Positions 39,866-63,567 of a stretch of DNA of 64,000 bases are shown piece by piece. This DNA is from Patescibacteria group bacterium (lineage in GTDB: Bacteria > Patescibacteriota > Patescibacteriia > XYB2-FULL-38-15): NCBI GenBank assembly GCA_041650995.1, contig JBAZJZ010000001.1, forward strand, positions 427,302-491,301. Reading direction: 5' to 3'. Position numbers and translations under genes: made by a program. Every line of letters starts with the position of its first letter. Within the stretch, counting starts at the first letter, position 1. The notes under the pieces were generated by a model that saw nothing but the letters and a program-made list of their open reading frames with translations, was not told where the DNA came from and ran no database searches.

Positions 39866-39956
39866 CGGAGAGGGAGGGATTCGAACCCTCGATACGGACT
39901 TTCGACCGTATAACGGTTTAGCAAACCGCTGCCTTCAGCCGCTCGGCCACCTCTCC
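39866..39956 (-). tRNA. tRNA-Ser(GCT)
   Basis: Acceptor GGAGAGG, anticodon loop TTGCTAA, long variable arm, T-loop TTCGAAT. Confidence 0.8.
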
Positions 39957-39967: not shown

Positions 39968-40057
39968 TGGCGGAGAGGGTGAGATTCGAACTCACGGTCC
40001 CCTTGCGAGGACTCCGGTTTTCAAGACCGGTGCAATAGTCCACTCTGCCACCTCTCC
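39968..40057 (-). tRNA. tRNA-Ser(TGA) with genomically encoded CCA
   Basis: Acceptor GGAGAGG, anticodon loop CTTGAAA, long variable arm, 3' ...CCTCTCCGCCA. Confidence 0.8.
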
Positions 40058-44045: not shown

Positions 44046-44471
44046 TTATTCGCCTTTATATACTCCGCCCGTATTTACAATTAATGATAATTCCGCCAAT
44101 TTTGTAGCCACCATGCGTTCTTTAACCGGCCTCGGTGGGATTATTTTAACTTCTTCTTTTTTTAAAAATTGCCTCAGTTCGTCTGCAGTTGATTCTTTAT
44201 TCCAAACTCTTAATTTGGGTCGGCGCGTAGTTTGGATAAGATTTAGAAGAAAAAAATGAAATGGCTGGCCATTAACTTTAATGAAAGCCAATACTATGCC
44301 TAACCCAAAAACAGGAATACCGAAAGCTAAAAAATAAAAAAAAGTAAGAAGTTTATAGGCAATAAATAAAATAATCGTTACGGCTAAAAGAATGATAAAC
44401 TGACGGGAAGTAATTGGCCCGATTATTTTATCTTCCACGTCAATAAATTGAGGGATGACAAACTGCTGCAT
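44046..44471 (-). CDS. small two-TM protein, PrgI/VirB3-like by position and topology
   Basis: 141 aa. VIPQFIDVEDKIIGPITSRQFIILLAVTIILF is followed by a second TM. Directly upstream of virB4, as VirB3-like genes usually are. Confidence 0.35.
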   Translation of the reverse strand: MQQFVIPQFIDVEDKIIGPITSRQFIILLAVTIILFIAYKLLTFFYFLAFGIPVFGLGIVLAFIKVNGQPFHFFLLNLIQTTRRPKLRVWNKESTADELRQFLKKEEVKIIPPRPVKERMVATKLAELSLIVNTGGVYKGE

Positions 44472-48495: not shown

Positions 48496-51039
48496 TTACG
48501 AAGTTTGGACCTTGGCGGCTTTAGCTGCCTTAATCCTCTCAAACTCAGCAATTGCCGCCTCTGGACCCTGCTTTTTCCAGACCTCTCCCAGTTTATCGTA
48601 GTTATTAAAATCCTTCTCCTTTATTAGCTCTGCCATTTTTTGAGATAAACTTTTTTCTAAAGTAGATTCGGCACTCTTGACTGCTTGTTCTAACTGCTGT
48701 TTATATGATTTTCCAAAAAATTCCTGCGCCCCCTTAACCTTTTCTGCACCAGCCGCTTGCTCAATAGACTTTAATTCTACATCAATGTTTTGAATAACCT
48801 GTTGATCTTGTTTAATATCAACATCAATCTCTTTTTGTCTTGTTTCTAAATCAAACTTTTTATCTCGTTCAGCCGGCGTTAAAAATCCACCAGGAGCAGA
48901 CGCTTTTTCTATTAATTTATTCAACTCAAGCTGGTTATTTTTCTTCTCATTAGACAATCGAGAAATGCTCTTTTCTGCGTCGTCCCTATCCGATCTTGCC
49001 GCGTCGCGCGCCGCATCCGGATTTTCCAACCTCAACTTAACTTTTTCCAAATTACTTGCGTCGATTTTCAACTTATCTTCCAATTTTCCTTTTTCCAAAA
49101 TCCACTGGCCTTCCAATTTTTGAGCGGCGCTAACTCCGCCCTTTTCCTTGAAAAATTTTTCTAAACCCTTCCTCTCCTTATCAACATCAATATCTGATAA
49201 ATTTTGATTATATAATTCTTGATATCTTTGCTGCCTCTCTTCTGGCGTCATCGGCGTCTTTTTTTCTTCCTCGGCAACTTGCATTTCTGCGCGCTCATTC
49301 GCTAAATCTTTCCTCAATGCAGCATCGCTCATACCCTGCCTTTCACGAGATTTGGCAATACCTTGAATTCCTCTCTCTAATCCAAACACATCTGCCTCTC
49401 CCCGCCTGACTTTAAGTTCCAATCCATCCCTTTCCGCAATCTGCCCGGCCGCCTGCCTCTCGCCAATCGCTGCTTCAGTTCTCTGTTTTAATCTTTCCGC
49501 CTGCAACGGATCAACCGACCGCATTTCCGAAGCCGCCGCGCCGGCCAAACTATCCGCCGCGCGCCGCACTTTTCCCTGCGCTTCTTTGCCGCCCAAAGTC
49601 GCTTTAGCCATTTCCCATCTGCTCATTTTGGAAGCGGCTCGCGGATCAATAACCGAAGCCAAAAACGCCCGGCCGCCGGCCATACGCTCGGCAGTTTTTG
49701 CCATACCTTCTGCTTCGCGCATCGCGGAAATATTTTTTCTTCTCTTTGCCCTTGCCTCTTTTCTCCGCTCGGAAAAAGGCAACGCCACGCCGGTTTTGGC
49801 ATATGTAAGTTCTGAAACCTGACCCGCGCCAAATTTTGCCGCGCCTTTTGTCCCACGCCAGGCCAAACCAACTCCGCCTTTTGCCCCTCTCCAGGCTGTT
49901 CTAAACGGGGCAGTCCCCGCTCTTCTTAATCCCGACAAAGCCGCGCCAGCCGCGCCAGAGCCAATAATCCCTAACTTTTGTGTAAACATTAAACCAACTA
50001 AAAGCATCGTCACTCCAACCACAAGCGATGATAAATTATTATATTTTCCAATGTCACCCAAACCATTGGCCGCGTCCAGCGCCGTGGAATCAACTCCTAT
50101 TTCTGTATTAGCCGTTCCCCCGCCGGCCACAATCAAGGCCAACCAAATAAAAAAAGCTAAAATCGGCCCAGAAATTACATATTTAGAAAATTCATCCCAC
50201 CATTGTTTGGCATATTGCTGGCCTTGCGGAAAAGAAGCCAAAAGATATGCCAAAGGCGAGAGCACTATTAGGGTCCAAAGAATAACAATTCTCGCCACAA
50301 GCACAACCATCAAAACTCCTACGGTTATAGTCGCGATTAGAACGACAATCAAGGCTAAAAAAGCTGTACCCACCAAATCCCACTGCTGGTCAGCCGCACC
50401 CGCCTCATTAGCAAGGGTCTCAAAACTAAACATCTGATTAATGCCGAGTGCCTGAAAAAAATTCGCCCCGGCCGCGGCCTGAAAAGCATTCACAAAAGTC
50501 AGCATGATGACTTGCGCGAAATCGATGATAATGCCGCAAATTGTTTTGCTGAAGTTAATTAAAACTGCCATCAACAAAAGTTTTGGCAGTAATTTTTTGT
50601 ATGAATATGCTTCAACCCGCAAAATTGTGGCAATGGAAATTACAAGTAAAATCAAAATGAAAAACATATTGGCCAGGTCGCGAACAATTACCCAGCCGGT
50701 GACGACCGCCGTGGCATCCAAAAAATTATTATACGCCGCCACTTGAACCAACATTCCCACTACCCAAGTAAAAAGTTTACCCAAAAGTTTAGCTAATCCG
50801 CCAAGCAGATTGATCATTATTATATCAAAACTGGCAATGGCGTTTTGAATGCCCTCTGAAACTTCTGAAATACCCCAAATTGCAAGTGCTCCCGCTCCAA
50901 CCCAGCCAAGCGCTCTGGCAGCCCCTGCTTCTGCCGGTTTAGAAAAACTGAAAAGGCCAAAAAGCAAGATCCCTGCGAATCCGACCAATACTAAAATTGT
51001 CACCAAGACTCTTCTTTTTGGGCTAAAAAATTCAAACAT
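48496..51039 (-). CDS. VirB6/TrbL-like polytopic membrane protein with a long C-terminal coiled-coil tail
   Basis: At least 7 TM helices in the first ~350 aa, then a Gly/Ala-rich linker and a ~400-aa charged coiled coil. This is the architecture of VirB6-like proteins in Gram-positive-type T4SS. Confidence 0.5.
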   Translation of the reverse strand: MFEFFSPKRRVLVTILVLVGFAGILLFGLFSFSKPAEAGAARALGWVGAGALAIWGISEVSEGIQNAIASFDIIMINLLGGLAKLLGKLFTWVVGMLVQVAAYNNFLDATAVVTGWVIVRDLANMFFILILLVISIATILRVEAYSYKKLLPKLLLMAVLINFSKTICGIIIDFAQVIMLTFVNAFQAAAGANFFQALGINQMFSFETLANEAGAADQQWDLVGTAFLALIVVLIATITVGVLMVVLVARIVILWTLIVLSPLAYLLASFPQGQQYAKQWWDEFSKYVISGPILAFFIWLALIVAGGGTANTEIGVDSTALDAANGLGDIGKYNNLSSLVVGVTMLLVGLMFTQKLGIIGSGAAGAALSGLRRAGTAPFRTAWRGAKGGVGLAWRGTKGAAKFGAGQVSELTYAKTGVALPFSERRKEARAKRRKNISAMREAEGMAKTAERMAGGRAFLASVIDPRAASKMSRWEMAKATLGGKEAQGKVRRAADSLAGAAASEMRSVDPLQAERLKQRTEAAIGERQAAGQIAERDGLELKVRRGEADVFGLERGIQGIAKSRERQGMSDAALRKDLANERAEMQVAEEEKKTPMTPEERQQRYQELYNQNLSDIDVDKERKGLEKFFKEKGGVSAAQKLEGQWILEKGKLEDKLKIDASNLEKVKLRLENPDAARDAARSDRDDAEKSISRLSNEKKNNQLELNKLIEKASAPGGFLTPAERDKKFDLETRQKEIDVDIKQDQQVIQNIDVELKSIEQAAGAEKVKGAQEFFGKSYKQQLEQAVKSAESTLEKSLSQKMAELIKEKDFNNYDKLGEVWKKQGPEAAIAEFERIKAAKAAKVQTS

Positions 51040-51106: not shown

Positions 51107-51745
51107 TTAACTTACAATAAACATCACAATCGCCGCTATAAAAAGAAATCCCGAAAATAATCCTAAAAATGAACACCCGATGGAAATAAACACTCCGGCA
51201 AGAAAACCTGAGGCTTTTTTTGCGACCTTAGCCGCCTCTGCCGCTTTTTCCGAAACATCAAGCATTCCTTTTCCTCCGCCCCCTCCGGCTTTGGCAATTT
51301 TTTTCTCTTCTTTTTTAGCTTTCTTTTCCATCGCTTCTCCGGCCATAATAGTTGCCTGCGAGGCCATTGAAGAAAAAATTCCGATAATGACGATAACAAT
51401 GCCGATTAATAAAAGCGGCAAACCAAAAATCAAACCGATTATGGATATTCCGGCTCCCGCGCCAAAAGAAATAAGAATTCCGCCAATCCGCCGCAAAAGA
51501 AAAGACGCCCCTTTCCCTACCTCTCCGGCCTTTTGAATCCCTTGCCCGATTTTTTTCTCCGCCGCGGCTTGAGCTTTTTTGCCTGAGAGCGATGCCTGCG
51601 CCACCTGTTCATCTTCGGGCGATTCTAACGTTTCCGGCTCTTCGTCCAGCTCCTCCTCCGGCGCTTCTTCATCCGGCTGATTCGACGAAGCAACTTGCGC
51701 CTGGCGCAGTTCATTTTGAAAATCTTGTTCTTCGAAATTTGCCAT
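51107..51745 (-). CDS. small acidic/lysine-rich membrane protein, first gene of the T4SS-like operon
   Basis: The true start MANFEEQDF is at 51745. The ORF track's longer 51107-52402 ORF is an antisense read-through of the lipoprotein gene. Three TM segments. Confidence 0.4.
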   Translation of the reverse strand: MANFEEQDFQNELRQAQVASSNQPDEEAPEEELDEEPETLESPEDEQVAQASLSGKKAQAAAEKKIGQGIQKAGEVGKGASFLLRRIGGILISFGAGAGISIIGLIFGLPLLLIGIVIVIIGIFSSMASQATIMAGEAMEKKAKKEEKKIAKAGGGGGKGMLDVSEKAAEAAKVAKKASGFLAGVFISIGCSFLGLFSGFLFIAAIVMFIVS

Positions 51746-51843
51746 GGGAAAGGGATAAGTAAAAATTGTCTGCGATGATTTCCGCAAACTTTGAATTATT
51801 TTATTATAACACAAAAACTCCCGATTTGGGAGGTTAACATTCC

Positions 51844-51965
51844 TTGACAAAACCTTGAAAATAAGGTATATTAAAAGGTGTTTTAAAGCTTGGGCGAAAG
51901 GGCGTAAATAGCGCTTTTTCGCTTGGGCTGTATAGCCCCAGACACGGAATGAGCCGTGTTTGAAA
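51844..51965 (+). promoter_or_regulatory. canonical sigma70 promoter (TTGACA, 17 bp spacer, TATATT) plus conserved structured leader, copy 1
   Basis: TTGACA at 51844-51849 and TATATT at 51867-51872. The ~95-nt transcribed block is near-identical to 53287-53408 and contains hairpins such as CACGGAATGAGCCGTG. Confidence 0.6.
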
Positions 51966-52027
51966 CAAAAAAATCCGCCGAAGAGGCGGGAAAGAAGAAT
52001 CCGCCAGAGGCGGAGGAGGGATTGACA

Positions 52028-52494
52028 ATGAAGAAGTTCTGGATGGTGACGATGATCGCGATCCTGTTCGGTCTCACGACGACCGGCTGCCCGGACGGTG
52101 ACGACGACTACGACACGGATGCGGACATGGACTCCGACAGCGATGCCGGCTCCGACGCGGACGCCGAGACCGACACGGCCGAGGACGGCACGACGGACGA
52201 GACCGCCGACTGCCCGAGCGTGGCTGGCGAGTGGGCGTTGACATACCACAGTGATGCGACGGGTTTCGATGAGCACTACATCCTCACGCTCGAACAGAGC
52301 GGCTGCTCCTTGAGTGGCTACGACGATGATGGCGGTGCGTTCTCCGGCACCGTCAACGAAGACGGCTCTCTCTCTGGCGCGATTACGGTGGTACCCGTAC
52401 ACTGACTGGCAATCTCGTGAGTCCTCCTCGACTGGAGGGAAACTGGACTTCTACGGGGGGTGGATACGGCCAATGGTGGGCCGATCGCCAGTAA
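52028..52494 (+). pseudogene. GC-rich acidic lipoprotein, copy 1, frameshifted near 52385-52395
   Basis: GGAGG RBS, MKKFWMVTMIAILFGLTTTGC lipobox-like signal, poly-Asp linker. Homology to copy 2 (…TGNFTQTPPRMEGLW…WWADPQ*) continues in the +2 frame (…TGNLVSPPRLEGNW…WWADRQ*) after a premature stop. Confidence 0.55.
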
Positions 52495-52501
52495 TGCCAA
52501 A

Positions 52502-52542
52502 GCCCCGCAAACTGCAAAGTGCAGAATGCGGGGCGTTTTTTT
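52502..52542. terminator. bidirectional rho-independent terminator between lipoprotein copy 1 and the orphan cassette
   Basis: GCCCCGCA...TGCGGGGC stem followed by GTTTTTTTA. Confidence 0.55.
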
Positions 52543-52558
52543 ATCTGAAAATATTTTA

Positions 52559-53186
52559 TTATTTCGGCACAACTATGACACGGCCAGCGAAGGATGTCCA
52601 GTGCGGTTGGACATCACCGATGTCACAATCACTCAGATAACACCCTCTTCCCGTCCCCGTACAATCTCCATTACACCACCCCCAGTTGTCAGTAAGCTGA
52701 ACTCTTGGTTTGAAGACGCAGCAGGAGCCGTTGCCGGCAATAGCGCCATCTACGTTTTCAGGGCAAACTGCGGCGAAACAGTTGGAGTCTGAATCAGAAA
52801 CACAGGCGCGGACAGTACTCGCGGCGTTAGAAGGGCATTTATAAGTATGGGTAAAGTAGAAATAATCATCAGTGCAGGCACGATCTTCGGAATGGGCAAA
52901 ATCTGAGTTATCACAGGCATCTTTGCCAAGATGGTTTTTGTAGCGAGCGTTTCTTGTTCCGGCGATATCGCTATCATCATTCCAGTCGACTTGAACGGAT
53001 CTGATCGGACCGGTATCTTTATCGGCCGTGCCGAAGAATTGCATGGTGGCGACGTATTGGCCGCCGTAACTAACGACATTTTTAGGTTCTGTAGCACCGG
53101 ATGCGGTAAAGCCAAAGCCGGAGATAAAAATTTTCCCTCGCCCCTTGGGGGAGAGGGTTAGGGTGAGGGGTTCCGTAAGACGACCG
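52559..53186 (-). pseudogene. orphan C-terminal cassette homologous to the last ~200 aa of the giant protein
   Basis: Encodes ISGFGFTASGATEPKNVVSYGGQYVATMQFFGTADK...CPSNAASTVRACVSDSDSNCFAAVCPENVDGAI...CCVFKPRVQLTDNWGWCNG...VIVVPK. It aligns with the giant protein C-terminus, including identical stretches of 32 aa and 19 aa. Homology extends upstream of the annotated ATG to an in-frame stop at 53186-53188. No N-terminal region, signal peptide or promoter is present. Confidence 0.65.
53135..53157. repeat. CCCTCGCCCC-TTG-GGGGAGAGGG hairpin followed by TTAGGG, related to the 1832-1852 hairpin
   Basis: Same architecture and same TTAGGG tail as the hairpin after thyA. Confidence 0.45.
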
Positions 53187-53250
53187 TTATCTTTTTGGGA
53201 TATAATGATATATAATGAAGAAAAGGGATACTTTCATAACTCCCCTTAAT

Positions 53251-53271
53251 CCCCTCTTACCTTAAGAGGGG
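53251..53271. repeat. CCCCTCTTA-CC-TTAAGAGGGG hairpin
   Basis: Near-perfect inverted repeat just upstream of promoter copy 2. Confidence 0.45.
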
Positions 53272-53286
53272 AAACGTCAACGGGTC

Positions 53287-53408
53287 TTGACAAAACCTTG
53301 AAAATATAGTATATTAAAAGGTGTTTTAAAGCTTGGACGAAAGGGCGTAAATAACGCTTTTTCGCTTGGGCTTTATAGCCCCAGACACGGAATGAGCCGT
53401 GTTTGAAA
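53287..53408 (+). promoter_or_regulatory. canonical sigma70 promoter (TTGACA, 17 bp spacer, TATATT) plus conserved structured leader, copy 2
   Basis: TTGACA at 53287-53292 and TATATT at 53310-53315. Only a few substitutions relative to copy 1 over ~122 nt. The downstream leader diverges and forms a long CCTGAGC...GCTCAGG hairpin before the RBS. Confidence 0.6.
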
Positions 53409-53492
53409 ACAAGGGTGTTATTCCCTGAGCGACGCGCAAGCGGAGTCGAAGGGAGGCCTTCGACAAGCTCAGGCCATAACTGGAGGAAAGTC

Positions 53493-53963
53493 ATGACGAA
53501 GTTCTGGATGGTGGCGATGATCACGATCCTGTTCGGTCTCACGACCGGCTGCCCCGACGGGGACGACGACTACGACGCGGAAATGGACGCCGACAGCGAT
53601 GCCGGCTCCGACGCGGACGCGGACGCCGATCCCGACACGGCCGAGGACGGCACGACGGACGAGAGCACGGCCTGCCCGAACATCGCCGGCGACTGGGCGC
53701 TGACGTACCGGAACGACTTGGGTTACGAAGGATACTACACCCTCACGCTCGAGCAGGACGGATGTCTTGTGATTGGGTTGGATGACCTTTGCGAGTACTC
53801 CGGCACCATTTCGGAGAGTGGCTACGTTTCACTTTTCCGAGATTGTGCTGCTTCCGATCGTACGATCACCGGCAACTTCACCCAGACCCCCCCCCGCATG
53901 GAAGGATTGTGGGATGAATCGGAGGGAACTTCCCACGGCACATGGTGGGCTGATCCCCAGTGA
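53493..53963 (+). CDS. GC-rich acidic lipoprotein, copy 2, intact
   Basis: GGAGG RBS. MTKFWMVAMITILFGLTTGC lipoprotein-like signal. Asp-rich linker DGDDDYDAEMDADSDAGSDADADADPD, then a ~100-aa Cys-containing domain. Confidence 0.6.
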   Translation: MTKFWMVAMITILFGLTTGCPDGDDDYDAEMDADSDAGSDADADADPDTAEDGTTDESTACPNIAGDWALTYRNDLGYEGYYTLTLEQDGCLVIGLDDLCEYSGTISESGYVSLFRDCAASDRTITGNFTQTPPRMEGLWDESEGTSHGTWWADPQ

Positions 53964-53970
53964 ACCGAAA

Positions 53971-54023
53971 CCGGCGACGCGAACTTGAACACCTGTTCAG
54001 GTTTGCGTCGCCGGATTTTTTTT
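53971..54023. terminator. strong bidirectional terminator between lipoprotein copy 2 and the giant gene
   Basis: 10-bp stem CCGGCGACGC...GCGTCGCCGG followed by ATTTTTTTT. Confidence 0.6.
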
Positions 54024-54044
54024 CTTTTCGTAAATTTTTTTCTA

Positions 54045-57000
54045 TTACCTGGGTACTACAATGACCTTGCCGGAAAAATATGTCCAATGATTTATACCCG
54101 ATTCTCCTTCCCGCTCTGGAGAGCACTCTGAATCATAACACCCATTCACTCTTCCAGTACAACTCCCATTACACCAACCCCAGTTGTCAGTAAGCTGCAC
54201 TCTTGGTTTGAAGACGCAGCAGGAACCATTGCCGGGGATAGCGCCATCTACGTTTTCAGGGCAAACCGCGGCGAAACAATTGGAGTCTGAATCAGAAACA
54301 CAGGCGCGGACAGTGCTCGCGGCGTTAGAAGGACAGTTATAAATATTTGTAAAGTAGAAATGGTCTTCAGTGCAAGCGCCGGTTGAATGGGCAAAGTCTC
54401 TATTATCACAACCTTCCCGGCCAAGATGGTTTTTGTAGCGGCCAGTGGTGGTGCTTGAAGTGCCCGGACCGGCGTTCCAGTCTACAACCACCTTGGTGAT
54501 AGGACCCGCGTTTTTATCGGCTGTACCGAAGAACTGCATAACAGCGTAAAGCTCTCCGCCATAGCCGACGACGTTTACTGGTTCGCTGGCGCCGGACGGA
54601 GTTAAACCCGTGCCGTCTATCCCGTTTACGGAAATCCCTTGAATTAAATTAGGCCCTTCCTCCATTAAAGGTTTGCACTTGTCGCCCTGGCAGTCGGTGA
54701 TGGGCCAAATTTGTGGCGGAGAGGGCCACGCAGTTACACCAGCCGGTAACGCTCCGCTCTTTGAAGTATCTGTAATATCGGCTGGCGGAACATCGGAGCC
54801 TGAATAAACGGCCGTTAAACTATCCCACGTAAATAATCCGTAACGTTTGGCGAAAAGCTGCCTGATTCTTTCGTGTGCCGCTCGGCTTGTTTCTTTTTCA
54901 ACGCTGCCAGCCGGCTCGCTCCCCGCCTGGACACAAACGCCGCTAATACAATCAAAATTACGGCACTCTTCATGAGTGGTACACTGACGCGGCAAAGCCG
55001 TTCCTCCAATTGTTTTACACTCGCCAATTGGCGCTGAAGGGCTATAACCGGCAATAAAATTACATTCTCTTACCAAATCACCAGTAAAATCTGAATCAGC
55101 TAAAGGCGTGCTTGCCTGACAATAACCTCTGCCCGTGCTTCCACCAAAGACGCATGGACCCATGGCTCCGCATTCTGCGTCATCAGCACACGATTTATGA
55201 CACTGGACATTGCCGCAAATCCAATTACGCGTGCAATCTTCCGCCACCCTGCATGACGTTCCTCCTGCTGCCGGAGAACGATAGACGGAAGTGTAAGACC
55301 TATCTTCATTTGGCACAGTCAAACCAACACCTTCTTCCGGATACTTTGTAAAGCCAGACGCCGGGCAACTTAAATCAGGATTTGTTAAACTAATTGTCAA
55401 ATTATCTGTATCCTTTCGGCAAGTAGGAATAGTTAAGAAATCATTTAACGGGTCGCTGCTGGACGCGCCAAAAGGTCGGGGCTCTACATCATAAAAATAG
55501 CCAAGCAAAGATTGATACGGATCGGCGACCACTGGGTGTCCGCCATCTTGCCAGATCCTGTCAGTCCACGCCTTATTTGCGTCTCTATCACTCGTGCCCG
55601 CGACTTGATAAAAAACCTTGCAACCAATGAACGGGTCTGAATGACTGGCGTATTTGCGGTATCCGGCCCCCTCTTCAACGCCGCCTTCTCGGCGACAATC
55701 TTTAAACTGATCAAAAGTCTCGCGTAAATTATCAACATAATAAACTTCTAAACCATTGCTATTTATGCGATCTGCAGCGCGAGTTAAATTACAGCTTGAA
55801 TCATCTGGCCGCTTTGAATTTTTTGGCACGCAACGATACGGACAATCATTATCTCCTATATCTTCTTCACACCATCCTTCGTATTCGCAATGAGTTATTA
55901 AAGCAAAATCATTTACCGGATCACATTGTGTTATGTTTTTAGCGCAAGCTCCTAGAGCTTCGCCTCGTTCAGCATGGCAATAGCAATCTTCTCCTCCGAC
56001 ACAACCGCTATATCCTCCTAATTCCGCACATTCACGATCATCTTCACTATCAAAACCAACCGGACTTAAATTTCTAAAAACACCGGCCTCTAAACAATAA
56101 TATTTATTTCCCAACGGGAACCCTGCTGTTTCATAATTATTATATAAATCTGGCATGCCGGGAATTTGATCCATTGGATACCAAGTAAGACAGGCCAACT
56201 GATCCGGCTTCCCGTTAATTGAAGTTGATGTATCGCGTTCTAAACAAAATCCACTCCAGCCAAGAACAACATCTATTTTTTCAGCGGAATAACATTTGCC
56301 ATCGCCCAGGCACTCACTATCATCGGCACAAGTTTTACCCGGCTCTTTTCCGCCTACACAAATACTTGGCAAAGAAACGTTATCTTTATCAAAATATTTT
56401 GTTAACGCGCCACTACCATAGCTCGCTTTCTTGTATGAACATTCACAATCTTCCCCATTTTCGCAAATATTCGCGCCGCTAAACCCGGGTTGTTTACTCA
56501 AGGGCGACCAATTCTTTACTACGCTATTTGGAAAAGGAGATGATTGTTCCGGATAAGCGCGGCAGGAAATTTTTTCCGCGTTTTCCTCGGTCATCGCCAG
56601 AAGCGCGCCTGGCGCGAATGGATCACCGCGAAAATTAGTTATACAAATATTGTTGAAGCATTTACCATTATCACCGCATCGTGAACCATTTGTCTCGCTA
56701 GCGCAAAATCCCGGAGGATGCGTGGCACAAGAAATAACGCTACCAGCGGCGTCAAAACAGCGATCGTCAACAAAACCCAAGGTCTGGACTGGACTTTCTT
56801 CTGTGCCAATATTTACCGCGCGCAAATCAAATGCCTGATATTGGTTATAAATTGAATCGCCCGAATAATCCATTCCCTTGAAAGTAACGTCACGAGAAAC
56901 ATACAAATCTTTACTTAAAATCTTGCGCGAGGTTTCCGGCGTAAAATTGGAATCAGTACATTGCGCCGTAGCCTGTCCTACTTTTGCGTATTGTCGGCAA

Positions 57001-60000
57001 GATGTAACCGTATTGCACAAAACTTTCTGTCGTCCGGTTTGCGGATCAAAAGTTGAAGTCGTGCCAGAGCACGTCAGCCATTCCCCGCAAACGCGATCGC
57101 GGCGGACTTGGATAAGAGTGTTAGAGTCGTTCGGGTTAACAGCGATACGTTGTGGCCCGCCAGATGTATAAATAGAAGTTTGCCCCCTGTAAGTTATCCT
57201 GCACTCCGGGGCTGGTGAGCCTATCGGACAAGAAATTTGAACAACTCTCTGTCCTCCTAAATCAAAAGTGCTTAAACATCTCCAACCCGACGCGCCAGGC
57301 CTTGGTGCCGGATCGCCTGGGCAATCGGCGTCTGTATTGCAAGTGACACCCGAGATTTCATACGTATCCAAACTTGATCCCCTGATTGAGCCATTGACAC
57401 AAAGCTTACAATTTTGTTTTGTGCAATCAATCGGCGCGACTAACCCGCCCGGATCACCCGTTTTCTTTTCCGAGCTTAAATATGTCGCGTTGGCATTGTA
57501 AGTCAACTGCGGATTGCTTGTATCATTAAACAGAGCACAACCAGTTTTTTGCGAAGCCATGCCATTACAGTTCCCTGAACTGATTTTGTCATTCTTAATA
57601 TAATAATATGCCGCGCCTAGAGGGTCATCTGAAGTATCGGCCGGATCAACAAATTTTGTGCACCGGTCAGCCTGCGGAATACACTCGCCTACCCAACCGG
57701 AGTACGGGCAGGATCGTTTGTTATAAGAAACTGTGCAAGTTGTTCCGGTCTTGCCGGTAGCCCCGGCTGTACCAACAGTGCAAGCGCAACCCGCGGTATT
57801 CTGGCAAACGTAAGGCAGGCTGCAATTTGCGTCGCCATTTTTCCAAATATTGTAATACCCGCCGCTGAAATTCGCCGGATCGCAAGGTTCAAGCGGATTG
57901 CTTCCCTTTTTAAACCATCCGGAAACGTTTTGTCCGCTGACCGTCACATTATCTTTCCATTCACAAAGCCGAACGCCCGGATCTTTAAAATACATTTTTC
58001 CGCCGTCGGTCGTGGTGTATTCTTCACAGGACAAAAACCCGACTTGACAGAGAATTCTTCCCGTCGGGGAATTATAAAGCGCCGGATTGGCCAAGAGATT
58101 GACGGTATCATACTGCGGTTTGCCGTCATCCCCCACCTTCACGTTTCCGGCGGCGTCCAAGGTCGGCGAACCAAATTCAGCGCAACCTTTATTTTGCGCG
58201 GCGCATTTATATTCGTCGTTTACCACGATGTATGCGTAGGAATCCGTCGGAATCGTAACATTGTCGGACAATCTTTCTTCTTCCGAAAGAGCCGGCTCGC
58301 TGTCATTTTCCGTATTGAAAGTTTCCGCGGTCGCCGAGGTGTTATTATTAGTTTTTAATAATTTCGCGCAGCCGGCAGCGTCGGGCGAACAAAGCCTTGA
58401 AAAAGATTTTAGATAATGCAAACCATTCGCGCGATCATAATAACTTGCGCAGCCAAGCTGGGCTTGTGGCAAAAGCGCGGAAATAATACACTCACTGCGG
58501 TCTGAACTCCACGAACCCCCGGCAGTAGCGCAATCTCCTTGATCAGCAATTGAAAAATCAACCGCAAAAGACCGATCACAGGAAGCTGGCGTATTCCATG
58601 AATTTTTAACCACGTAAATATACGACTGAATTTCTCTCAAAATAATATTATCAATATAAACTGGGGTTGTTCCGCCCACCGAGGCAATCCGCAAAGTTTC
58701 ACCTCCGCCGGCAACACTCCAATCAACATAAACCGGACCGAGCGAGAAATATCGCCAGTCAAAAGAAAGATTTGTCGGACTCTTGGTCGCTGAACTAAAT
58801 TCTTTGCCGGAAGACGTGGCGCCCAAAAATTTAATATCTAATCTGCTATTTCCTTTAGCCCAGAAAGATAAGGTGTAAAGGCCATTCTGTCTAACCGCGG
58901 AGCCCAAATTTTTATCTAGTGTTCCCGTAGCGCCAAAGGATAAGGACTTCCCGCCGACAACAAGCGATTCAGAACTTATAACCGGCAAATCTGCTTCGTC
59001 CCAGTTGGCTATTGAAGAATCATCAAAATTATCATTTAAAATCACTGCCGTATTTGCTCCGGCATTGCCGCGATAAGCTCGGCAACCAACTGCTTCGTTT
59101 GAACAAGTACGAGACTCGGGCAAATAAACATTGTAAGCACACTCACTTTTTACCGCATCCCATCTTCCGCCCGAAGTTCCGCAATCAGCCGTGCTGGAAA
59201 TTGTTTTGCGGTACGGGTGGCAATCGTCCGTCATGATAATTGTTTTTGAATACAACCTATAATGTTTCAATCCGGCAGAATCGTAAAATTCACGGCAATC
59301 AGGATTAATTAAAGAATCTGCCTTGGTGCAAAGACCAACAAATGAAGCGCTGTCGCAAGTTAAACCGTCCGAGAGAAGCGCGGTGCATGGAGGAACTCCG
59401 CCACTCGGATCGCTATCCGGGGTCGTGGCTCCGCCCATCTTCAAATTCCAAGTTTTCAATTGATAACCGGTTGTGTCGCTTCCTTCCCAGGTGTAGAAAG
59501 CCGCTCCTGTCGCGCCGGGTTTTTCGCAGCGGCGAATCACGCTGAAATTTGCCACGGCTTCGTTTTCCAAACTCGTGAACTGATCGCAGCCAACGTCCGC
59601 GGCGTTACAAGTTCTGCCTGTCGTCGGGATAAAATAAACCGGGAATTTATCTTGTTCAAAATCAGTCGCGACTTGTTTAAATGTTTGATAGCCAACGCAT
59701 TCGGCCGGGCAATAATCATCCGGATAACTGGCTACGCCCGGGACAGACGGGTCGCCGTTTGTCGGACGGAATTCGTCACAACCCACGTCTTTTTCTTCGC
59801 AGGCTTTGGCGTAATTTTGGCATTGTTCGGCGTCGTTTGTTTTATTCAAGGCACCGGTTGAAGTGTAGTCATAACAAGAGTAATAATCTGGCGCGGCTTT
59901 CAAATAAAGCGCTTCGCCGGTTCTTCCCCAGCCTTCGTGGTATTGCGAAGCAAAAAATCCCTCTTCAAGTTGCACGGCGTCAATCAAACATGGAGCAGAT

Positions 60001-62390
60001 GGGGACATTGAGGCATTGTAAAAAGCGATACTGACTGTTGTCGCCGTATCTCCACTTGGAAATGAATGAGTAACCTGATATCTCTGCCACGACGTTTCCG
60101 AAGGTGCTGGAGTATTTCTTGCAGTGATCGTTCCGCCAAAATCAAACGTGCTGGACGCAGCGCAACCTTTGGCATAAAGGGAAAGAGTAAAAGTTCTGCC
60201 GCCGCGCTCCTTATCCAATCGAACCGTTTGACCGATGACTCCGCTTGCCTTTATTGCGGTTCGGCCGAAATAGGTGTCCGAAGCAGCTTCCGCGTTTGGA
60301 TCGCCGTACACCCCCCAAGGAATTGGCCAAGAAGCAAATTCATCTTTAACACCATCACCAGCCGTTCCGGTAAAATTTTCAAAACTGCTGTTACTAACTA
60401 AATTTAATTTTGTATCCGACGTTGTCCGTAAAAATTCATTACAACCCGGCTCGTCGCATTGAGTAATATTTTTATTAAAGAAAATTCTGTCTGATCGGCG
60501 GGCCGCGGTTCCCGAACCAGTAAGCGTATCTTGCCAGAGCCAGTCGTCCCCGACTTTTGATTGTCGAGTTGAATACCAACGGCAGCCAATGTCATCGGCA
60601 TTGCAAGGCGGACCATAATCAACCGTGTTTGTGACATAAGAAACATTTTGCCCGTCGCTTCGTTTTAAAAGCTTACAAGTATCGTATTGCGCATCACACT
60701 TATCTCCGTCCAGCCGCCAGATATTTTTTTCTCTGGTGCAATAACCCCAGCCGCCTTCGCAATTTCCTTGGTCATCTTCAGCAATACAAGTCGGTGAATC
60801 AACACATGTTTCCTGGCGGAAACTGTTTTCCGTGGTTTGAAGCAACGGCCCATAAACCCGCGCGCGGCATTGCTCGGCCGGCGCTTTCAAAATCCAGTCT
60901 GGATCAATTAAATGACAATACGGATGCTCAGTATCGGCTTTACCTTCTGGATAAGCCGGATCGGTATAATTACAATCATGAAACCGATCAACTACTTCTT
61001 TTAAACTTACGGGTTCGCTGCTTGTTTGACTTTGCGCGGCAATTTCCCAACCAATGGAAATAATTCTCGCCTTTCTTAATTTAACGAGATTGCTATAGCA
61101 ATAGCCATAAGTGTAACAATTTGGATCCTGATTTTTTGCTGTGTTTGAAGGAGGAAATAGTGGCCACTCGCCGTGCAAATATTCCTGTTTGATCGCCTCG
61201 CTAATCGTGAGCGCCTCTCCGGTTTGCGCCTGCCGGACCGCGGCTTCAAATTTTCCATCCATCACGCAATTATTTGTGCCTTTAAATTTTTCAGGACAAA
61301 CAATAAAATCAGATAAGATATCGTAAGTGCCGCCTTCTTTAATTTGCGGCACAAGCAAATCGGCAAAAGCCAGCTCCGCGGCACGCCGTCCGCCCCAGGC
61401 TGTTCCCTCTTTTGAGGTCGCGTCCTCACCCTTCGGAAAAAGATCCGCCAGAGAATACATCCCTTTACTAAAAATATTCTCCATTGTTTTGGAAAGCAGG
61501 GTACTTACAAAAGTTGATACCATCACCGAAAGTATTCCCTGTGCCCCAGCCGAGAGCGCCTGGCCAGAAAGACTCCACTTTAATTGTTCCGCGTCAACCG
61601 GACCCTCAGTTTGAATTTCCGAAGTTTGGCGAATAACTTCCGCCGGAGTTTTTACTTTTCCGCTGATAAGTTCTGATGAAGGTAAAAAACCTTGCCCTTC
61701 TTCTCTGGTTAAGGCTGCCGTATCAGAAGCGCTTCTTTCCGCATTGAATGCTCCGACATACGCGCTCATTGCTAAATCAAGATCCGTGCCTGCTCCGTAA
61801 CCAATTTGAAACTGCGAAGCTGCTTCCCGTAAAAAATCTTCTGTTTGCACTTCAGCGATAAATGACTCCCAGTTTGAACGAATCGACGACCATTCGCAAG
61901 TTGGTGGCGGCAATCCGTCCGCGTATGTTTGGGCTAACTGCAGCTGAAGAGCAAGTCCCAGTCTCGGATTTGGCGGAGCGCAAAAATTAACACCAACCAT
62001 TTCGCCAAAACTTCCGATAAATTCACCTGCCGCGTCTAAAGCGGCGTTACCTAAATAATCTCCCCAACCTTCAGTGGAAAAAAGCGGCATCTGTCCGCCC
62101 CCGCCGGAAGCCAGACTAACAGCCAAATCATACGATAATTTTTGCATGAAGCGCGAGGCGGCGTTAATCAAAGCCATTGTTCCCGCATTCACTACCAGAA
62201 CTTTCAAAAAATCTTTTATGTTTTTAATTGTTGTTTGGGCGCCAGTTACCGGGTCGGAAACAACCATTTGCGCCTCGGCCGGACGAGCATATAAAAAGAC
62301 GCCGGAAACAACCTGGGTCAAAATAAAACAAATCAAAACCGCGCTAACAGTCCATTTTTTTACTTTATAATTTCTCTGGATAACAGACAT
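54045..62390 (-). CDS. giant (2781 aa) cysteine-rich secreted protein, putative surface adhesin-like protein
   Basis: Single uninterrupted ORF. Signal peptide ending ARPAEA|QM. More than 150 Cys, many Trp/Gly/Asp, no recognizable enzymatic motif. The C-terminal ~200 aa are homologous to the orphan cassette at 52559-53186. Confidence 0.75.
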   Translation of the reverse strand: MSVIQRNYKVKKWTVSAVLICFILTQVVSGVFLYARPAEAQMVVSDPVTGAQTTIKNIKDFLKVLVVNAGTMALINAASRFMQKLSYDLAVSLASGGGGQMPLFSTEGWGDYLGNAALDAAGEFIGSFGEMVGVNFCAPPNPRLGLALQLQLAQTYADGLPPPTCEWSSIRSNWESFIAEVQTEDFLREAASQFQIGYGAGTDLDLAMSAYVGAFNAERSASDTAALTREEGQGFLPSSELISGKVKTPAEVIRQTSEIQTEGPVDAEQLKWSLSGQALSAGAQGILSVMVSTFVSTLLSKTMENIFSKGMYSLADLFPKGEDATSKEGTAWGGRRAAELAFADLLVPQIKEGGTYDILSDFIVCPEKFKGTNNCVMDGKFEAAVRQAQTGEALTISEAIKQEYLHGEWPLFPPSNTAKNQDPNCYTYGYCYSNLVKLRKARIISIGWEIAAQSQTSSEPVSLKEVVDRFHDCNYTDPAYPEGKADTEHPYCHLIDPDWILKAPAEQCRARVYGPLLQTTENSFRQETCVDSPTCIAEDDQGNCEGGWGYCTREKNIWRLDGDKCDAQYDTCKLLKRSDGQNVSYVTNTVDYGPPCNADDIGCRWYSTRQSKVGDDWLWQDTLTGSGTAARRSDRIFFNKNITQCDEPGCNEFLRTTSDTKLNLVSNSSFENFTGTAGDGVKDEFASWPIPWGVYGDPNAEAASDTYFGRTAIKASGVIGQTVRLDKERGGRTFTLSLYAKGCAASSTFDFGGTITARNTPAPSETSWQRYQVTHSFPSGDTATTVSIAFYNASMSPSAPCLIDAVQLEEGFFASQYHEGWGRTGEALYLKAAPDYYSCYDYTSTGALNKTNDAEQCQNYAKACEEKDVGCDEFRPTNGDPSVPGVASYPDDYCPAECVGYQTFKQVATDFEQDKFPVYFIPTTGRTCNAADVGCDQFTSLENEAVANFSVIRRCEKPGATGAAFYTWEGSDTTGYQLKTWNLKMGGATTPDSDPSGGVPPCTALLSDGLTCDSASFVGLCTKADSLINPDCREFYDSAGLKHYRLYSKTIIMTDDCHPYRKTISSTADCGTSGGRWDAVKSECAYNVYLPESRTCSNEAVGCRAYRGNAGANTAVILNDNFDDSSIANWDEADLPVISSESLVVGGKSLSFGATGTLDKNLGSAVRQNGLYTLSFWAKGNSRLDIKFLGATSSGKEFSSATKSPTNLSFDWRYFSLGPVYVDWSVAGGGETLRIASVGGTTPVYIDNIILREIQSYIYVVKNSWNTPASCDRSFAVDFSIADQGDCATAGGSWSSDRSECIISALLPQAQLGCASYYDRANGLHYLKSFSRLCSPDAAGCAKLLKTNNNTSATAETFNTENDSEPALSEEERLSDNVTIPTDSYAYIVVNDEYKCAAQNKGCAEFGSPTLDAAGNVKVGDDGKPQYDTVNLLANPALYNSPTGRILCQVGFLSCEEYTTTDGGKMYFKDPGVRLCEWKDNVTVSGQNVSGWFKKGSNPLEPCDPANFSGGYYNIWKNGDANCSLPYVCQNTAGCACTVGTAGATGKTGTTCTVSYNKRSCPYSGWVGECIPQADRCTKFVDPADTSDDPLGAAYYYIKNDKISSGNCNGMASQKTGCALFNDTSNPQLTYNANATYLSSEKKTGDPGGLVAPIDCTKQNCKLCVNGSIRGSSLDTYEISGVTCNTDADCPGDPAPRPGASGWRCLSTFDLGGQRVVQISCPIGSPAPECRITYRGQTSIYTSGGPQRIAVNPNDSNTLIQVRRDRVCGEWLTCSGTTSTFDPQTGRQKVLCNTVTSCRQYAKVGQATAQCTDSNFTPETSRKILSKDLYVSRDVTFKGMDYSGDSIYNQYQAFDLRAVNIGTEESPVQTLGFVDDRCFDAAGSVISCATHPPGFCASETNGSRCGDNGKCFNNICITNFRGDPFAPGALLAMTEENAEKISCRAYPEQSSPFPNSVVKNWSPLSKQPGFSGANICENGEDCECSYKKASYGSGALTKYFDKDNVSLPSICVGGKEPGKTCADDSECLGDGKCYSAEKIDVVLGWSGFCLERDTSTSINGKPDQLACLTWYPMDQIPGMPDLYNNYETAGFPLGNKYYCLEAGVFRNLSPVGFDSEDDRECAELGGYSGCVGGEDCYCHAERGEALGACAKNITQCDPVNDFALITHCEYEGWCEEDIGDNDCPYRCVPKNSKRPDDSSCNLTRAADRINSNGLEVYYVDNLRETFDQFKDCRREGGVEEGAGYRKYASHSDPFIGCKVFYQVAGTSDRDANKAWTDRIWQDGGHPVVADPYQSLLGYFYDVEPRPFGASSSDPLNDFLTIPTCRKDTDNLTISLTNPDLSCPASGFTKYPEEGVGLTVPNEDRSYTSVYRSPAAGGTSCRVAEDCTRNWICGNVQCHKSCADDAECGAMGPCVFGGSTGRGYCQASTPLADSDFTGDLVRECNFIAGYSPSAPIGECKTIGGTALPRQCTTHEECRNFDCISGVCVQAGSEPAGSVEKETSRAAHERIRQLFAKRYGLFTWDSLTAVYSGSDVPPADITDTSKSGALPAGVTAWPSPPQIWPITDCQGDKCKPLMEEGPNLIQGISVNGIDGTGLTPSGASEPVNVVGYGGELYAVMQFFGTADKNAGPITKVVVDWNAGPGTSSTTTGRYKNHLGREGCDNRDFAHSTGACTEDHFYFTNIYNCPSNAASTVRACVSDSDSNCFAAVCPENVDGAIPGNGSCCVFKPRVQLTDNWGWCNGSCTGRVNGCYDSECSPEREGESGINHWTYFSGKVIVVPR

Positions 62391-62410: not shown

Positions 62411-62800
62411 TCAGGAATTATGAATTATGGTTTTTGATTTTTTGATTAAACCGTTAGTAATTTTATTCACCTTAATGGTCTGTTCGGCAATTCTATTAAA
62501 ATCTGCTCCGGCAATATAACCAATATCTCTGGCCACTAATAATTGATTCTGAATTTCCGTTAAAGAGCCAAGCGCCATTGAATAAAATTGTAATTTTTCT
62601 TTGAAGGACTGCCTACTAAATCCTTCGGCAATATTTGATGTAAAAGAAATTCCCGCGCGGCGCAGTTGATTTGTCAAACAAAATAATTCCTCCCTGGGAA
62701 ATATCTTCGTCAATTTGTAAATGTCCAAAACTAATTTATGTCCTTCTTTCCACGCATCGAGGTCGGTAAAAGATTTTATCTTCCCTGATTCCTGATTCAT
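62411..62800 (-). CDS. four-helix-bundle protein (TIGR02436-like, the family often found in 23S rRNA intervening sequences)
   Basis: Signature FPREELFCLTNQLRRAGISFTSNIAEGFSRQS...MALGSLTEIQNQLLVARDIGYI. Confidence 0.8.
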   Translation of the reverse strand: MNQESGKIKSFTDLDAWKEGHKLVLDIYKLTKIFPREELFCLTNQLRRAGISFTSNIAEGFSRQSFKEKLQFYSMALGSLTEIQNQLLVARDIGYIAGADFNRIAEQTIKVNKITNGLIKKSKTIIHNS

Positions 62801-62805
62801 AATTC

Positions 62806-63567
62806 CTAATTCCCCTTATTCACCGTCTCTTCAAAAATTTTCATCAAAGTTGCGTCATCAACGCTATTTAAAGTTGCATCGTCAACTCCGGCCTGCCGTA
62901 AAAGTTCTCGGAGTTGGGACGGCGTCATCTCGCTAATGTTAACATTTGTTGGCAATGTGGAATTCGTGTTTGTATTGCTTGGTACTACCGCCCCGCCTGA
63001 TTCGCGGAGGGTTTCGTTATAAAGTTCTAAAAGAGTTTTATCATCAAGTTTATTCAAAGTTGCGTCATCAACTCCGGCCTGCCGCAGGGCGTCGCGCACT
63101 TCTTCCGCCGTGGCTGTTCCGGCTAATAATCCTCCCAATTCTTCCTCAACGGGCGGCGTGACTATTGGCTCGGCTTTTGCCGCCCCCTCCTCTCCGGCCT
63201 TGGAGCAAATTTTCCCCGCCGGGCAATTCGGATCGTTTCCTGAAGAAATTTCTTCTTTATCAGAAAACCCGTCTGAATCAGAATCGGCTAAATATGAACT
63301 CGTTCCATAAATATAGATTTCATCATAATCGGTTAATCCATCTCCATCTGTATCGGTCTCTTTCATGGCGGCCAATTTTTCCGCGTCTGCTTCAAGCTGC
63401 GATTTCCATAACCCTATATCTTGGCCGTATCTGGCGAAAGGGGCGCGCAAATATTTGGGATATTGCCAAATTATTCCTAGAACAGCAATCACGCATAAAA
63501 TCACCAAAATCGTCACCCCAATTTTGATTCGGCGTTCTTTTTCGGGTTCATTTTTTATTCCTTCCAT
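62806..63567 (-). CDS. membrane-anchored protein with thrombospondin-type-3-like Ca-binding repeats and two ~35-aa LRQAGVDDATLN repeats
   Basis: N-terminal TM helix. DTDGDGLTDYDE and DSDSDGFSDKEE motifs. Duplicated motif LRQAGVDDATLNKLDDKTLLELYNETL / LRQAGVDDATLNSVDDATLMKIFEETV. Confidence 0.45.
   Translation of the reverse strand: MEGIKNEPEKERRIKIGVTILVILCVIAVLGIIWQYPKYLRAPFARYGQDIGLWKSQLEADAEKLAAMKETDTDGDGLTDYDEIYIYGTSSYLADSDSDGFSDKEEISSGNDPNCPAGKICSKAGEEGAAKAEPIVTPPVEEELGGLLAGTATAEEVRDALRQAGVDDATLNKLDDKTLLELYNETLRESGGAVVPSNTNTNSTLPTNVNISEMTPSQLRELLRQAGVDDATLNSVDDATLMKIFEETVNKGN

Follow-up and report, generated by a model that had tools for sequence, protein, structure and literature searches.

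The 64,000-nucleotide stretch of Patescibacteria DNA analysed here (contig JBAZJZ010000001.1 of assembly GCA_041650995.1; hereafter the window) carries on its minus strand a giant gene, 54045-62390, which encodes a protein of 2781 aa. An earlier interpretation of this DNA, made from the letters alone and referred to below as the sequence-only reading, had described this open reading frame (ORF), a neighbouring operon resembling a type IV secretion system (T4SS) and a genome like those of episymbiotic bacteria of the candidate phyla radiation. All three descriptions stand: the ORF is as given, the organism is a Patescibacteria metagenome-assembled genome (MAG), and the giant gene lies 5' of a monoderm-type T4SS cluster in which VirB6-like, PrgI/VirB3, TrsD and VirB4 genes can be identified. 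The subject of this report is what follows the stop codon of the giant gene, namely a second, partial copy of its 3' end, with a lipoprotein gene converging on each of the two ends. We suggest that this arrangement is probably an allelic tip module, displaced from the live gene but still recombining with it, so that the variable tip of the giant protein would be renewed by recombination.

The tandem module downstream of the giant gene

Downstream of the giant stop codon lies a tandem direct repeat of a unit of about 1.45 kb (51843-54620), with a period of 1443-1498 nt over the repeat families D1-D8. The two units, A (51843 to about 53130) and B (53286 to about 54620), have a mean identity of 82% in pairwise alignment. 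Each carries on the plus strand a promoter, a structured leader, a lipoprotein gene and a hairpin terminator, and on the minus strand the last ~190 codons of the giant gene. Unit B contains the live end of the giant gene and an intact lipoprotein gene.

The live C-terminal domain in unit B occupies 54048-54680 on the minus strand (211 codons), of which the portion 54048-54620 is homologous to the second copy, here called the orphan. Its core tract (54135-54377, minus strand) is 88% identical to the orphan over 243 nt and 90-96% identical over the central ~175 nt. It gives way after the motif WCNG to a hypervariable, Cys-rich tail of 41 codons (54048-54170, minus strand), which ends in the conserved WTYF.GKVIVVPR and has a nucleotide identity of only 0.35-0.55 to the orphan tail. 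On the opposite strand, the promoter and 5' leader of lipoprotein gene B (53287-53492, plus strand) begin with TTGACA-17-TATATT at 53287-53315, and the leader folds with a z-score of -6.2. The gene itself (53493-53963, plus strand) has a G+C content at third codon positions (GC3) of 0.78 and encodes a protein of 156 aa consisting of a signal peptide with a conserved G-C, an Asp-rich tether and a predicted eight-stranded beta-barrel at residues 61-156. Between it and the giant gene stands a terminator hairpin (53971-54014) with a 20-bp stem (-40.6 kcal/mol, z -7.5), whose T-run is strong on the plus side and weaker on the minus side.

Unit A repeats this layout. Its promoter and leader (51844-52027, plus strand; leader fold z -6.9) are 96% identical to those of unit B over the first 123 nt, and the promoters of both units, at 51844 and 53287, have the form TTGACA-17-TATATT, each matching the consensus at 11 of 12 positions. 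Both are complete, with 17-nt spacers and no long homopolymer. The leader, of about 90 nt, forms a long G.U-rich hairpin followed by a second hairpin, at 53319-53405 in unit B. Lipoprotein gene A (52028-52494, plus strand), which encodes a barrel of what we call type 3, is a pseudogene: the frame is lost within a (CT)5 run (52366-52375), from which the tail (52366-52491, 42 codons) continues as homologous sequence in another frame. Comparison with intact relatives implies an original (CT)7, that is, two extra CT units. The lesion looks like an indel of the slippage type, which could in principle be reversible, although the run is short for a slippage site. A public 431-aa ORF at 51107-52402 on the minus strand is an artefact that fuses the next gene of the cluster, of 223 aa and starting at 51778, to the antisense frame of this lipoprotein gene. 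The terminator hairpin of unit A (52502-52542) reads GCCCCGCA...TGCGGGGC followed by a T-run (-25.5 kcal/mol, z -4.2).

The orphan C-terminal copy itself (52559-53131, minus strand) is an open frame of 190 codons that lacks any N-terminal region. A tblastn alignment runs from 53125/53131 down to 52562 with 68.8% amino-acid identity over 192 residues. The frame is open from 53232 and continues through the 190 codons without a stop or frameshift, the 5' 2,590 codons of the giant gene being missing; its first ATG, at 53044, has no Shine-Dalgarno sequence. The orphan core tract (52637-52879, minus strand) is the counterpart of 54135-54377.

The sequence-only reading had recognised much of this anatomy. 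The second copy of the giant 3' end is present, the two peptide stretches it quoted are indeed identical in both copies, both lipoprotein genes converge on a C-terminal copy across a terminator hairpin, and the two promoters and leaders are nearly identical, as proposed. The orphan start that it placed at 53186 has to be moved, as homology begins about 60 nt further in, near 53130. Its description of the orphan as promoterless is accurate as regards strong promoters, although one weak match (9 of 12 positions) lies on the minus strand at 53330-53303. The picture of a decaying older pair applies to lipoprotein A, which is frameshifted, but not to the orphan, which is truncated at its 5' end only and is otherwise intact.

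The two units are separated by a junction of 154 nt (53132-53285) that is unique and has no counterpart in the giant gene. It holds an element resembling repetitive extragenic palindromes (REP) at 53135-53170 and a palindrome, CCCCTCTTACCTTAAGAGGGG, at 53251-53271. Similar palindromes occur in two of the related loci compared below, L094 (5934-5970 and 7393-7474, one of them at the 5' edge of the orphan copy there) and L079. Such REP-like and palindromic elements may have a role in rearrangements, for which they are candidates.

As the window derives from a metagenome, and both units correspond to alleles that also occur in other strains, one might ask whether an assembler joined two strain alleles in tandem. 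The longest exact run common to the two units is 35 nt, far below the assembler k of 141 implied by the contig name k141, and the units are linked by the unique 154-nt junction. The 567-kb contig of the NCBI genome carries the same three genes consecutively (WC445_02670, 02675 and 02680), so the same gene order is found in the NCBI MAG, and the independent assemblies L006, L094, L093 and L103 show the same architecture. A misassembly at the tandem module is very unlikely, and we regard the artefact of two joined alleles as scarcely credible.

Mosaic alleles, orphan copies and convergent lipoproteins

Identity between units A and B is far from uniform. The promoter and leader (51841-51965) are 92-98% identical, and the signal peptide and linker 78-88%. 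Identity drops to 44-68% through the lipoprotein barrel, the terminator and the C-terminal tail (52219-52651), rises to 90-96% in the C-terminal core (52677-52826) and falls to 44-76% in the N-terminal part of the C-terminal copy (the N-part). Both the windowed identities and a codon alignment thus bear out the earlier description of two mosaic copies whose flanks are more divergent than their core.

In the codon alignment of the live and orphan copies, the overall proportions of non-synonymous and synonymous differences (pN and pS) are 0.20 and 0.61, corresponding to a dN/dS of about 0.18, which indicates that the two C-terminal regions diverged as coding sequence under purifying selection. 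Synonymous divergence is close to saturation in codons 21-100 and 171-210 (pS 0.65-0.94), and is 0.20-0.32 in codons 111-170, where nucleotide identity is 90-95%. The units are therefore old alleles rather than the products of a fresh duplication. The synonymous drop in the core is larger than amino-acid constraint alone would be expected to produce, and points to gene conversion.

A third sequence, the 1,090-bp contig L162, helps to resolve the history of the individual segments. Its 5' part is B-like (identity 0.80-0.90 to B versus 0.47-0.73 to A) and its tail is A-like (0.77-0.85 to A versus 0.23-0.53 to B). In the core, by contrast, A and B are 0.93-0.97 identical to each other, while L162 is only 0.70-0.77 identical to either. 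As the A and B cores are closer to each other than either is to that of L162, the core has evidently been homogenised within the genome lineage of the window by gene conversion. Other strains tell a similar story about the flanks. In L164 a C-terminal body almost identical to that of B is joined to another tail, and in L165/L166 an N-part about 90% identical to orphan A forms the live end of a 2,767-aa giant gene with an L003-type tail. N-parts and tails thus assort independently among strains. Together, the fourfold synonymous drop, the three-way mosaic of L162 and the reassorted alleles of L164 and L165 argue for the recombination at the conserved core that the sequence-only reading had proposed. 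The pattern is found again in L094, where the live C-terminal domain has a tract of pS 0-0.26 in common with the orphan of that locus, between flanks of 0.4-0.9; a dispersed pair of C-terminal copies in L002 has no low-pS tract.

The C-terminal ~210 residues of the giant protein belong to one homologous family, found at 210 loci in Genome Taxonomy Database (GTDB) genomes and 222 metagenome loci, with the invariant motifs CCVFKP..DNWGWCNG and VIVVP. The titles of the corresponding records are mostly Magasanikbacteria, Falkowbacteria, Parcubacteria or 'Patescibacteria group'. The domain was modelled with moderate confidence (predicted local distance difference test, pLDDT, 74) as a beta-sandwich resembling immunoglobulin (Ig) and PKD domains, with no match to an enzyme, so that the last ~190 residues of the giant protein are predicted to form an Ig/PKD-like sandwich that ends in a hypervariable, disulfide-rich tail. 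Foldseek searches of the PDB with the predicted folds were uninformative. In L006 (10001-10561; Falkowbacteria) the live domain lacks the otherwise invariant DNWGWCNG...GCY segment, which the adjoining orphan keeps; either the segment has truly been deleted there or the assembly has collapsed the two copies.

Extra 5'-truncated C-terminal copies are present in at least eight other loci: L006, L094, L090, L093, L103, L043, L045 and L002. The module of the window is thus not a simple tandem duplication without cassettes elsewhere, an outcome that the sequence-only reading had allowed for. The arrangements vary. In L094 the giant C-terminal domain is followed by two lipoprotein genes, the orphan and a further lipoprotein gene, and in L006 by a lipoprotein gene and the orphan, after which the contig ends, so that any orphan partner would lie beyond view. 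L090 and L093 have a C-terminal fragment and then a lipoprotein gene, and L103 a 570-aa C-terminal copy plus a lipoprotein paralogue. The orphans of L043, L045 and L002 lie 5-7 kb from the end of the giant gene or of a truncated giant gene, with housekeeping and other unrelated genes between. All orphans have the orientation of the giant gene, and all that are uncut by a contig end reach a stop codon. Their 5' ends range from about 15 residues before the domain to about residue 150 and therefore fit illegitimate or unequal events rather than a site-specific mechanism. The nearest relatives of the window (L163, L164, L165/166 and L005) have no orphan, which suggests that orphans come and go among genomes.

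Two smaller features accompany some of these copies. A small coiled-coil ORF (MLTQEDLKNIG... or MDQEIKKEF...) stands directly 5' of the orphan on the same strand in L006 (11583-11819), L090 (7872-8183) and L093 (6617-7060); a similar ORF occurs in L086 (10625-10924), where no orphan was detected, and none is present in the window. A fragment of IS1595 was seen in L002 only.

The lipoprotein gene, too, extends well beyond the window. Using a crude signal-peptide and lipobox scan, and counting convergent ORFs that end no more than 450 nt from the giant stop codon, we found a convergent lipoprotein-like ORF at 52 of 113 non-redundant giant 3' ends (46%) and at 12 of 346 control ORFs of at least 300 aa in the same loci (3.5%). 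The convergent lipoprotein is thus a normal neighbour of the giant gene across the family, and not a by-product of the duplication. The sequences of these lipoproteins are very diverse and fast-evolving. In the clade of the window, one to four lipoprotein genes lie between the giant gene and the gene for a small membrane protein. All have in common the promoter, the structured leader, the signal peptide and an acidic linker, to which quite different C-terminal domains are attached: three types of barrel, DUF1566/Lcl_C domains, PEGA-like domains and, in proteins of 650-690 aa, Ig repeats. Lipoprotein genes preceded by the leader encode C-terminal domains of five kinds, and the signal peptide is 94% identical between units A and B. 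The barrel family itself has only 23 representatives among 1.84 billion proteins, and the lipoprotein had no match in Pfam or NCBIfam.

The structured leader was seen in the window at 51874-51965 and 53317-53408 (plus strand) and in L089, L085, L005, L039, L087, L002, L006, L090 and L007. Its hairpin is kept in 12 copies, in which the changes are mostly one-sided (C-G to U-G, A-U to G-U) and few are two-sided. As many of its pairs are G.U, the structure exists only in the lipoprotein-sense RNA, and it may serve as an mRNA-stabilising or regulatory element; Rfam contains no family that matches the leader or any other part of the region. The lipoprotein genes stand out in composition as well, with a GC3 of 0.73-0.83 against about 0.35-0.45 in other genes (52028-52405 and 53493-53963 in the window; also L005, L085, L087, L089 and L090). 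The high GC3 extends over genomes whose giant proteins share only 50-60% identity, and could reflect repeated import or GC-biased gene conversion.

Origin and possible role of the module

How might such a module arise and operate? The convergence of the two genes brings both variable parts, the tail of the giant protein and the C-terminal domain of the lipoprotein, together within about 450 bp (52219-52651 in unit A, 53680-54170 in unit B). This variable segment is bracketed by the C-terminal core on one side and the lipoprotein leader and signal peptide on the other, which are the segments most similar between the units. Homologous recombination at these two handles could replace or reshuffle the segment between them, both between strains and within a genome. 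On this model an incoming allele (unit B) would now form the live end of the giant gene, its predecessor (unit A) having been displaced downstream as a 5'-truncated silent copy together with its own lipoprotein gene, which was later frameshifted. The silent copy would then have exchanged a tract of about 200 nt with the live gene by gene conversion in at least one event, so that it could act as a donor of tip sequence.

Several observations weigh against this model. The low pS of the core could in part reflect nucleotide-level constraint, although L162 lacks the low divergence there. Orphans are sporadic, being absent from the nearest relatives, and may be by-products. There is one cassette in the 64-kb window, and a one-donor system gives little variation; among the products of the 567-kb NCBI contig, protein searches returned only one other per query, namely the orphan when the giant C-terminal domain was the query and frameshifted lipoprotein A when the lipoprotein was. 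This genome thus has one cassette rather than a repertoire. Finally, the model of the C-terminal domain is of only moderate confidence (pLDDT 74), and its fold match is generic.

These points lend some weight to a neutral account, in which unequal crossover or insertion of a foreign allele left a dead copy, and conversion is merely incidental between similar sequences 1.5 kb apart, with no selection involved. The single cassette, the frameshift in lipoprotein A and the lack of orphans in the closest relatives would all follow, and variable orphan 5' cut points are what illegitimate events should leave. Yet the orphan has kept 190 codons open despite an amino-acid divergence of about 30%, units of orphan plus lipoprotein recur independently in clades whose giant proteins are only about 30% identical, and the reassortment of N-parts and tails among strains indicates that recombination does yield new live alleles. 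We therefore consider a purely neutral relic unlikely. It overlaps with the renewal model in any case, the sole difference being whether the silent copy matters.

A more ambitious proposal is one of direct binding: the giant protein, by its variable tail, would contact the variable domain of the lipoprotein carried by the producing cell or its kin, and the two would be swapped as one specificity cassette. Such a pair could serve in anchoring, in self-protection or in exclusion of the kind known from T4SS entry exclusion, with spare lipoproteins protecting against other types. The retention of the convergent lipoprotein (46% versus 3.5%) while its sequence evolves fast, and the arrays of two to four lipoproteins with different C-terminal domains, are what one would expect. 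Most orphans with enough downstream sequence are followed by a convergent lipoprotein gene (the window, L094, L093, L103 and L002), and the L090 orphan, too, is followed by a lipoprotein ORF, though the lipoprotein scan missed it. Over 15 modules, a set widened to avoid selection after 11 hand-picked modules had given r = 0.55, tail and barrel distances correlate in a Mantel test (r 0.355, p about 0.005; C-terminal body versus barrel, r 0.22; partial, 0.30), and type-3 barrels adjoin WTSF-type tails in five of five cases. However, a correlation of this kind is also the prediction of physical linkage alone. L162 has an A-type tail beside a DUF1566-type lipoprotein, L167 joins a WTSF tail to a type-1 barrel, and the crude rule finds no lipoprotein at more than half of the C-terminal ends; in the window itself the lipoprotein of the orphan has not been maintained. 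Homology to TraT, YddJ or Eex is lacking. A simple rule equating the WTSF tail with the type-3 barrel was tried and rejected: it holds five times out of five in one direction, but in the other L167 and PEGA-type partners are exceptions to it. The joint exchange of tip and lipoprotein as a cognate pair, as put forward in the sequence-only reading, is therefore weak in view of the L162 and L167 counterexamples and of a Mantel r of 0.36 for which linkage could suffice, and we hold the recognition or exclusion pair to be decidedly doubtful. Its most far-reaching form makes tail and lipoprotein domain a lock-and-key pair of the Patescibacteria T4SS, which would set which cells are engaged or which kin are spared, with a convergent layout that serves to let both halves be replaced in a single tract between the two conserved handles, and with the displaced modules and extra lipoproteins recording past specificities. 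We offer this as a long shot; if true, it would define a new class of polymorphic recognition system, apart from toxin/immunity pairs and antigenic-variation cassettes.

The layout also invites comparison with a polymorphic toxin accompanied by an extracytoplasmic immunity lipoprotein and an orphan toxin/immunity module, given a large secreted protein with a variable C-terminus, a small adjoining partner and a 5'-truncated orphan with a partner of its own. Extracytoplasmic immunity lipoproteins are known for cell-wall-targeting effectors, which speaks for such a reading. Truncated C-terminal copies with partners downstream of the main gene, one structural mark of such systems, are indeed found in the window, L094, L090, L093 and L103. 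Three of four structural marks are nevertheless absent, and the toxin/immunity reading is disfavoured. Across more than 400 loci the C-terminal domains form a single homologous family instead of a set of unrelated toxin domains, the predicted Ig/PKD-like sandwich matches no enzyme, the partner lies on the opposite strand with its own promoter and with a terminator between, and about half of the family has no detectable partner. The sequence-only reading had likewise leaned away from a toxin, and the predicted fold agrees with it; we regard a polymorphic toxin as very improbable here.

The earlier comparison with orphan C-terminal toxin (CT)/immunity modules and with silent cassettes holds for the layout, but the module is a member of neither family. 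It shares with the orphan CT/immunity modules of CdiA-CT/CdiI, Rhs and Vibrio cholerae T6SS effector displacement (PMC5361080) a unit in which a small partner gene accompanies the end of a large secreted protein, and older units that lie downstream, 5'-truncated and in the same orientation, with enough conserved sequence to recombine back. It differs from them in having a single Ig/PKD-like family in which only the tail varies, with no toxin fold and no demarcation motif, and in its convergent partner with its own 11/12 promoter, the intervening terminator and the loose pairing of tail and partner. As in the silent-cassette systems (Neisseria pilE/pilS, Mycoplasma genitalium MgPa/MgPar, Borrelia vlsE and Treponema tprK), one expressed gene stands near a promoterless partial copy, the sequence alternates between conserved and variable segments, conserved stretches flank a conversion tract, and alleles are mosaic among strains. 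In the window, the giant gene is the sole full copy beside the promoterless partial one, and the conversion tract is segmental. Unlike those systems, there is a single donor instead of a repertoire, it is coupled to a second gene (the lipoprotein gene), and no dedicated cis element was seen.

The lipoprotein side recalls the variable lipoproteins of mycoplasmas (Vlp, Vsp and Vsa), which are arrays of paralogues with a conserved promoter, 5' leader and signal peptide and divergent mature parts. In contrast to these, no homopolymer or invertase switch was seen here, and the promoter is complete in all copies. What varies is a folded domain, be it a barrel, DUF1566/Lcl_C, PEGA-like or made of Ig repeats, and not a set of short repeats; the array occupies one fixed place beside a T4SS gene. 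Two further systems are alike in principle. The R64/TP114 shufflon, which varies the C-terminal tip of the PilV adhesin (PMC9045228), is a conjugation-type machine component with an exchangeable end that sets partner specificity, and in entry exclusion (the YddJ lipoprotein and ConG of ICEBs1; Eex and TraG of SXT) the polymorphic end of a component is matched by a small membrane protein or lipoprotein of the same locus. The present module has no sequence homology to either, its T4SS is chromosomal with no relaxase found in the window, and any specific matching is putative. A true shufflon was considered and rejected, as the cassettes are in direct orientation and no recombinase is found among window ORFs of at least 120 aa. 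A diversity-generating retroelement, suggested by a bAvd-like gene in the region, was rejected as well: no reverse transcriptase is found among ORFs of at least 120 aa, and the 29 core mismatches between A and B are spread over all base classes and are not adenine-specific.

Renewal of the variable tip by recombination, with displacement of the older allele, is thus the explanation that we favour. The feature is real and recurrent. In it the end of a large, presumably surface-exposed protein is probably renewed by recombination, with older copies displaced; the protein family is new, and the convergence of the two genes is an unusual layout. Searches of open-access literature text turned up no account of the giant protein family or the module, nor of a connection between the family and the Patescibacteria T4SS. 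It is still poorly understood how ultra-small epibiotic bacteria recognise their hosts and stay attached to them, and here the locus supplies a candidate: a conserved giant protein, presumably at the surface, that is encoded with T4SS genes and whose tip is reshuffled among strains. According to a report cited in PMC12102498, the one relative that is genetically tractable cannot grow epibiotically without its T4SS. The giant protein may be an adhesin with a binding tip and act in host attachment, and variation of the tip may be adaptive. Should the tip determine host or kin specificity, the module would provide a sequence handle for host-range prediction and a testable protein pair. If the renewal model is true, the locus would be a simple natural example of specificity exchange in a reduced genome without dedicated recombinases. 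Were it a mere recombination scar, it would still mark a hot spot, and the pair of giant protein and lipoprotein would still be worth annotating.

The giant protein and its T4SS neighbourhood

The giant protein contains 135 Cys (4.9%) and a sole hydrophobic segment at its N-terminus (residues 13-36), which is predicted to be a signal or anchor. It is probably a Sec-exported, Cys-rich protein of the cell surface. The N-terminal ~400 residues are its best-conserved part, with about 90% identity to the closest relatives against about 60% elsewhere. Profile searches gave little. A match to CBM_4_9 at residues 1115-1215 is weak and sub-threshold, and no other Pfam match was obtained for the protein of the window. 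The VirB5-type profile NF010434 aligns with residues 24-59 only (E 0.004, far under the cutoff), a match to DUF4141 in the region of residues 24-60 appears in three of 18 orthologues and is likewise sub-threshold (best E 2.8e-4), and a PDB profile search with the N-terminal domain found no match.

Orthologues of the giant gene with the same neighbours occur in most of 161 related loci. On the minus strand of the window the order is a gene for a protein with thrombospondin type-3 (TSP3) repeats (62806-63567), which is the conserved 5' neighbour; a gene for a four-helix protein of the 23S-IVP/bAvd-like kind (62411-62800; PF05635, E 1e-33); the giant gene; the variable region; the 223-aa small membrane protein with two hydrophobic segments (51107-51778), which is the conserved next gene of the cluster; and a VirB6-like polytopic membrane protein of 847 aa (48496-51039). 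Further conserved genes of the cluster follow, namely three unknowns, PrgI/VirB3 (44046-44471), TrsD (43360-44037) and VirB4 (41427-43340), all on the minus strand. The 23S-IVP/bAvd-like gene is missing from the same position in the closest relatives L004-L006.

The order TSP3, giant and VirB6-like, the last 1-3 kb further on, recurs in the 161 loci examined wherever the flank suffices, and the neighbourhood of giant, VirB6, VirB3, TrsD and VirB4 genes spans Magasanik- and Falkowbacteria-like genomes. This recurrence marks the giant protein as a conserved, lineage-specific accessory of the monoderm-type T4SS cluster of Patescibacteria. A survey of these systems (PMC12102498) described them as chromosomal and MPF_FATA-like, with VirB4, TrsD, PrgI/VirB3, VirB6 and VirB2-like proteins. 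The cluster in the window has the same gene set and is likewise chromosomal, and here too no relaxase was found in the window. The same survey detected no adhesins such as PrgB, and it does not list the giant protein, the TSP3 protein or the convergent lipoprotein as conserved neighbours.

Among window ORFs of at least 120 aa there is no relaxase, recombinase, transposase or reverse transcriptase, and the remaining genes are housekeeping genes. Three tRNA genes (38929-39000, 39866-39956 and 39971-40057, minus strand) lie between recG and the end of the T4SS cluster. A second protein of the secreted type, with TSP3 repeats and a PKD domain, is encoded amid housekeeping genes at 14677-16131 (minus strand). 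Finally, two adjoining large proteins of 747 and 567 aa (30899-33142 and 33160-34863, plus strand) each have a T4SS_pilin (VirB2-like) domain at residues ~230-300, and one of them also has a C-terminal GDSL lipase domain; the pair lies about 8 kb from VirB4, on the opposite strand.

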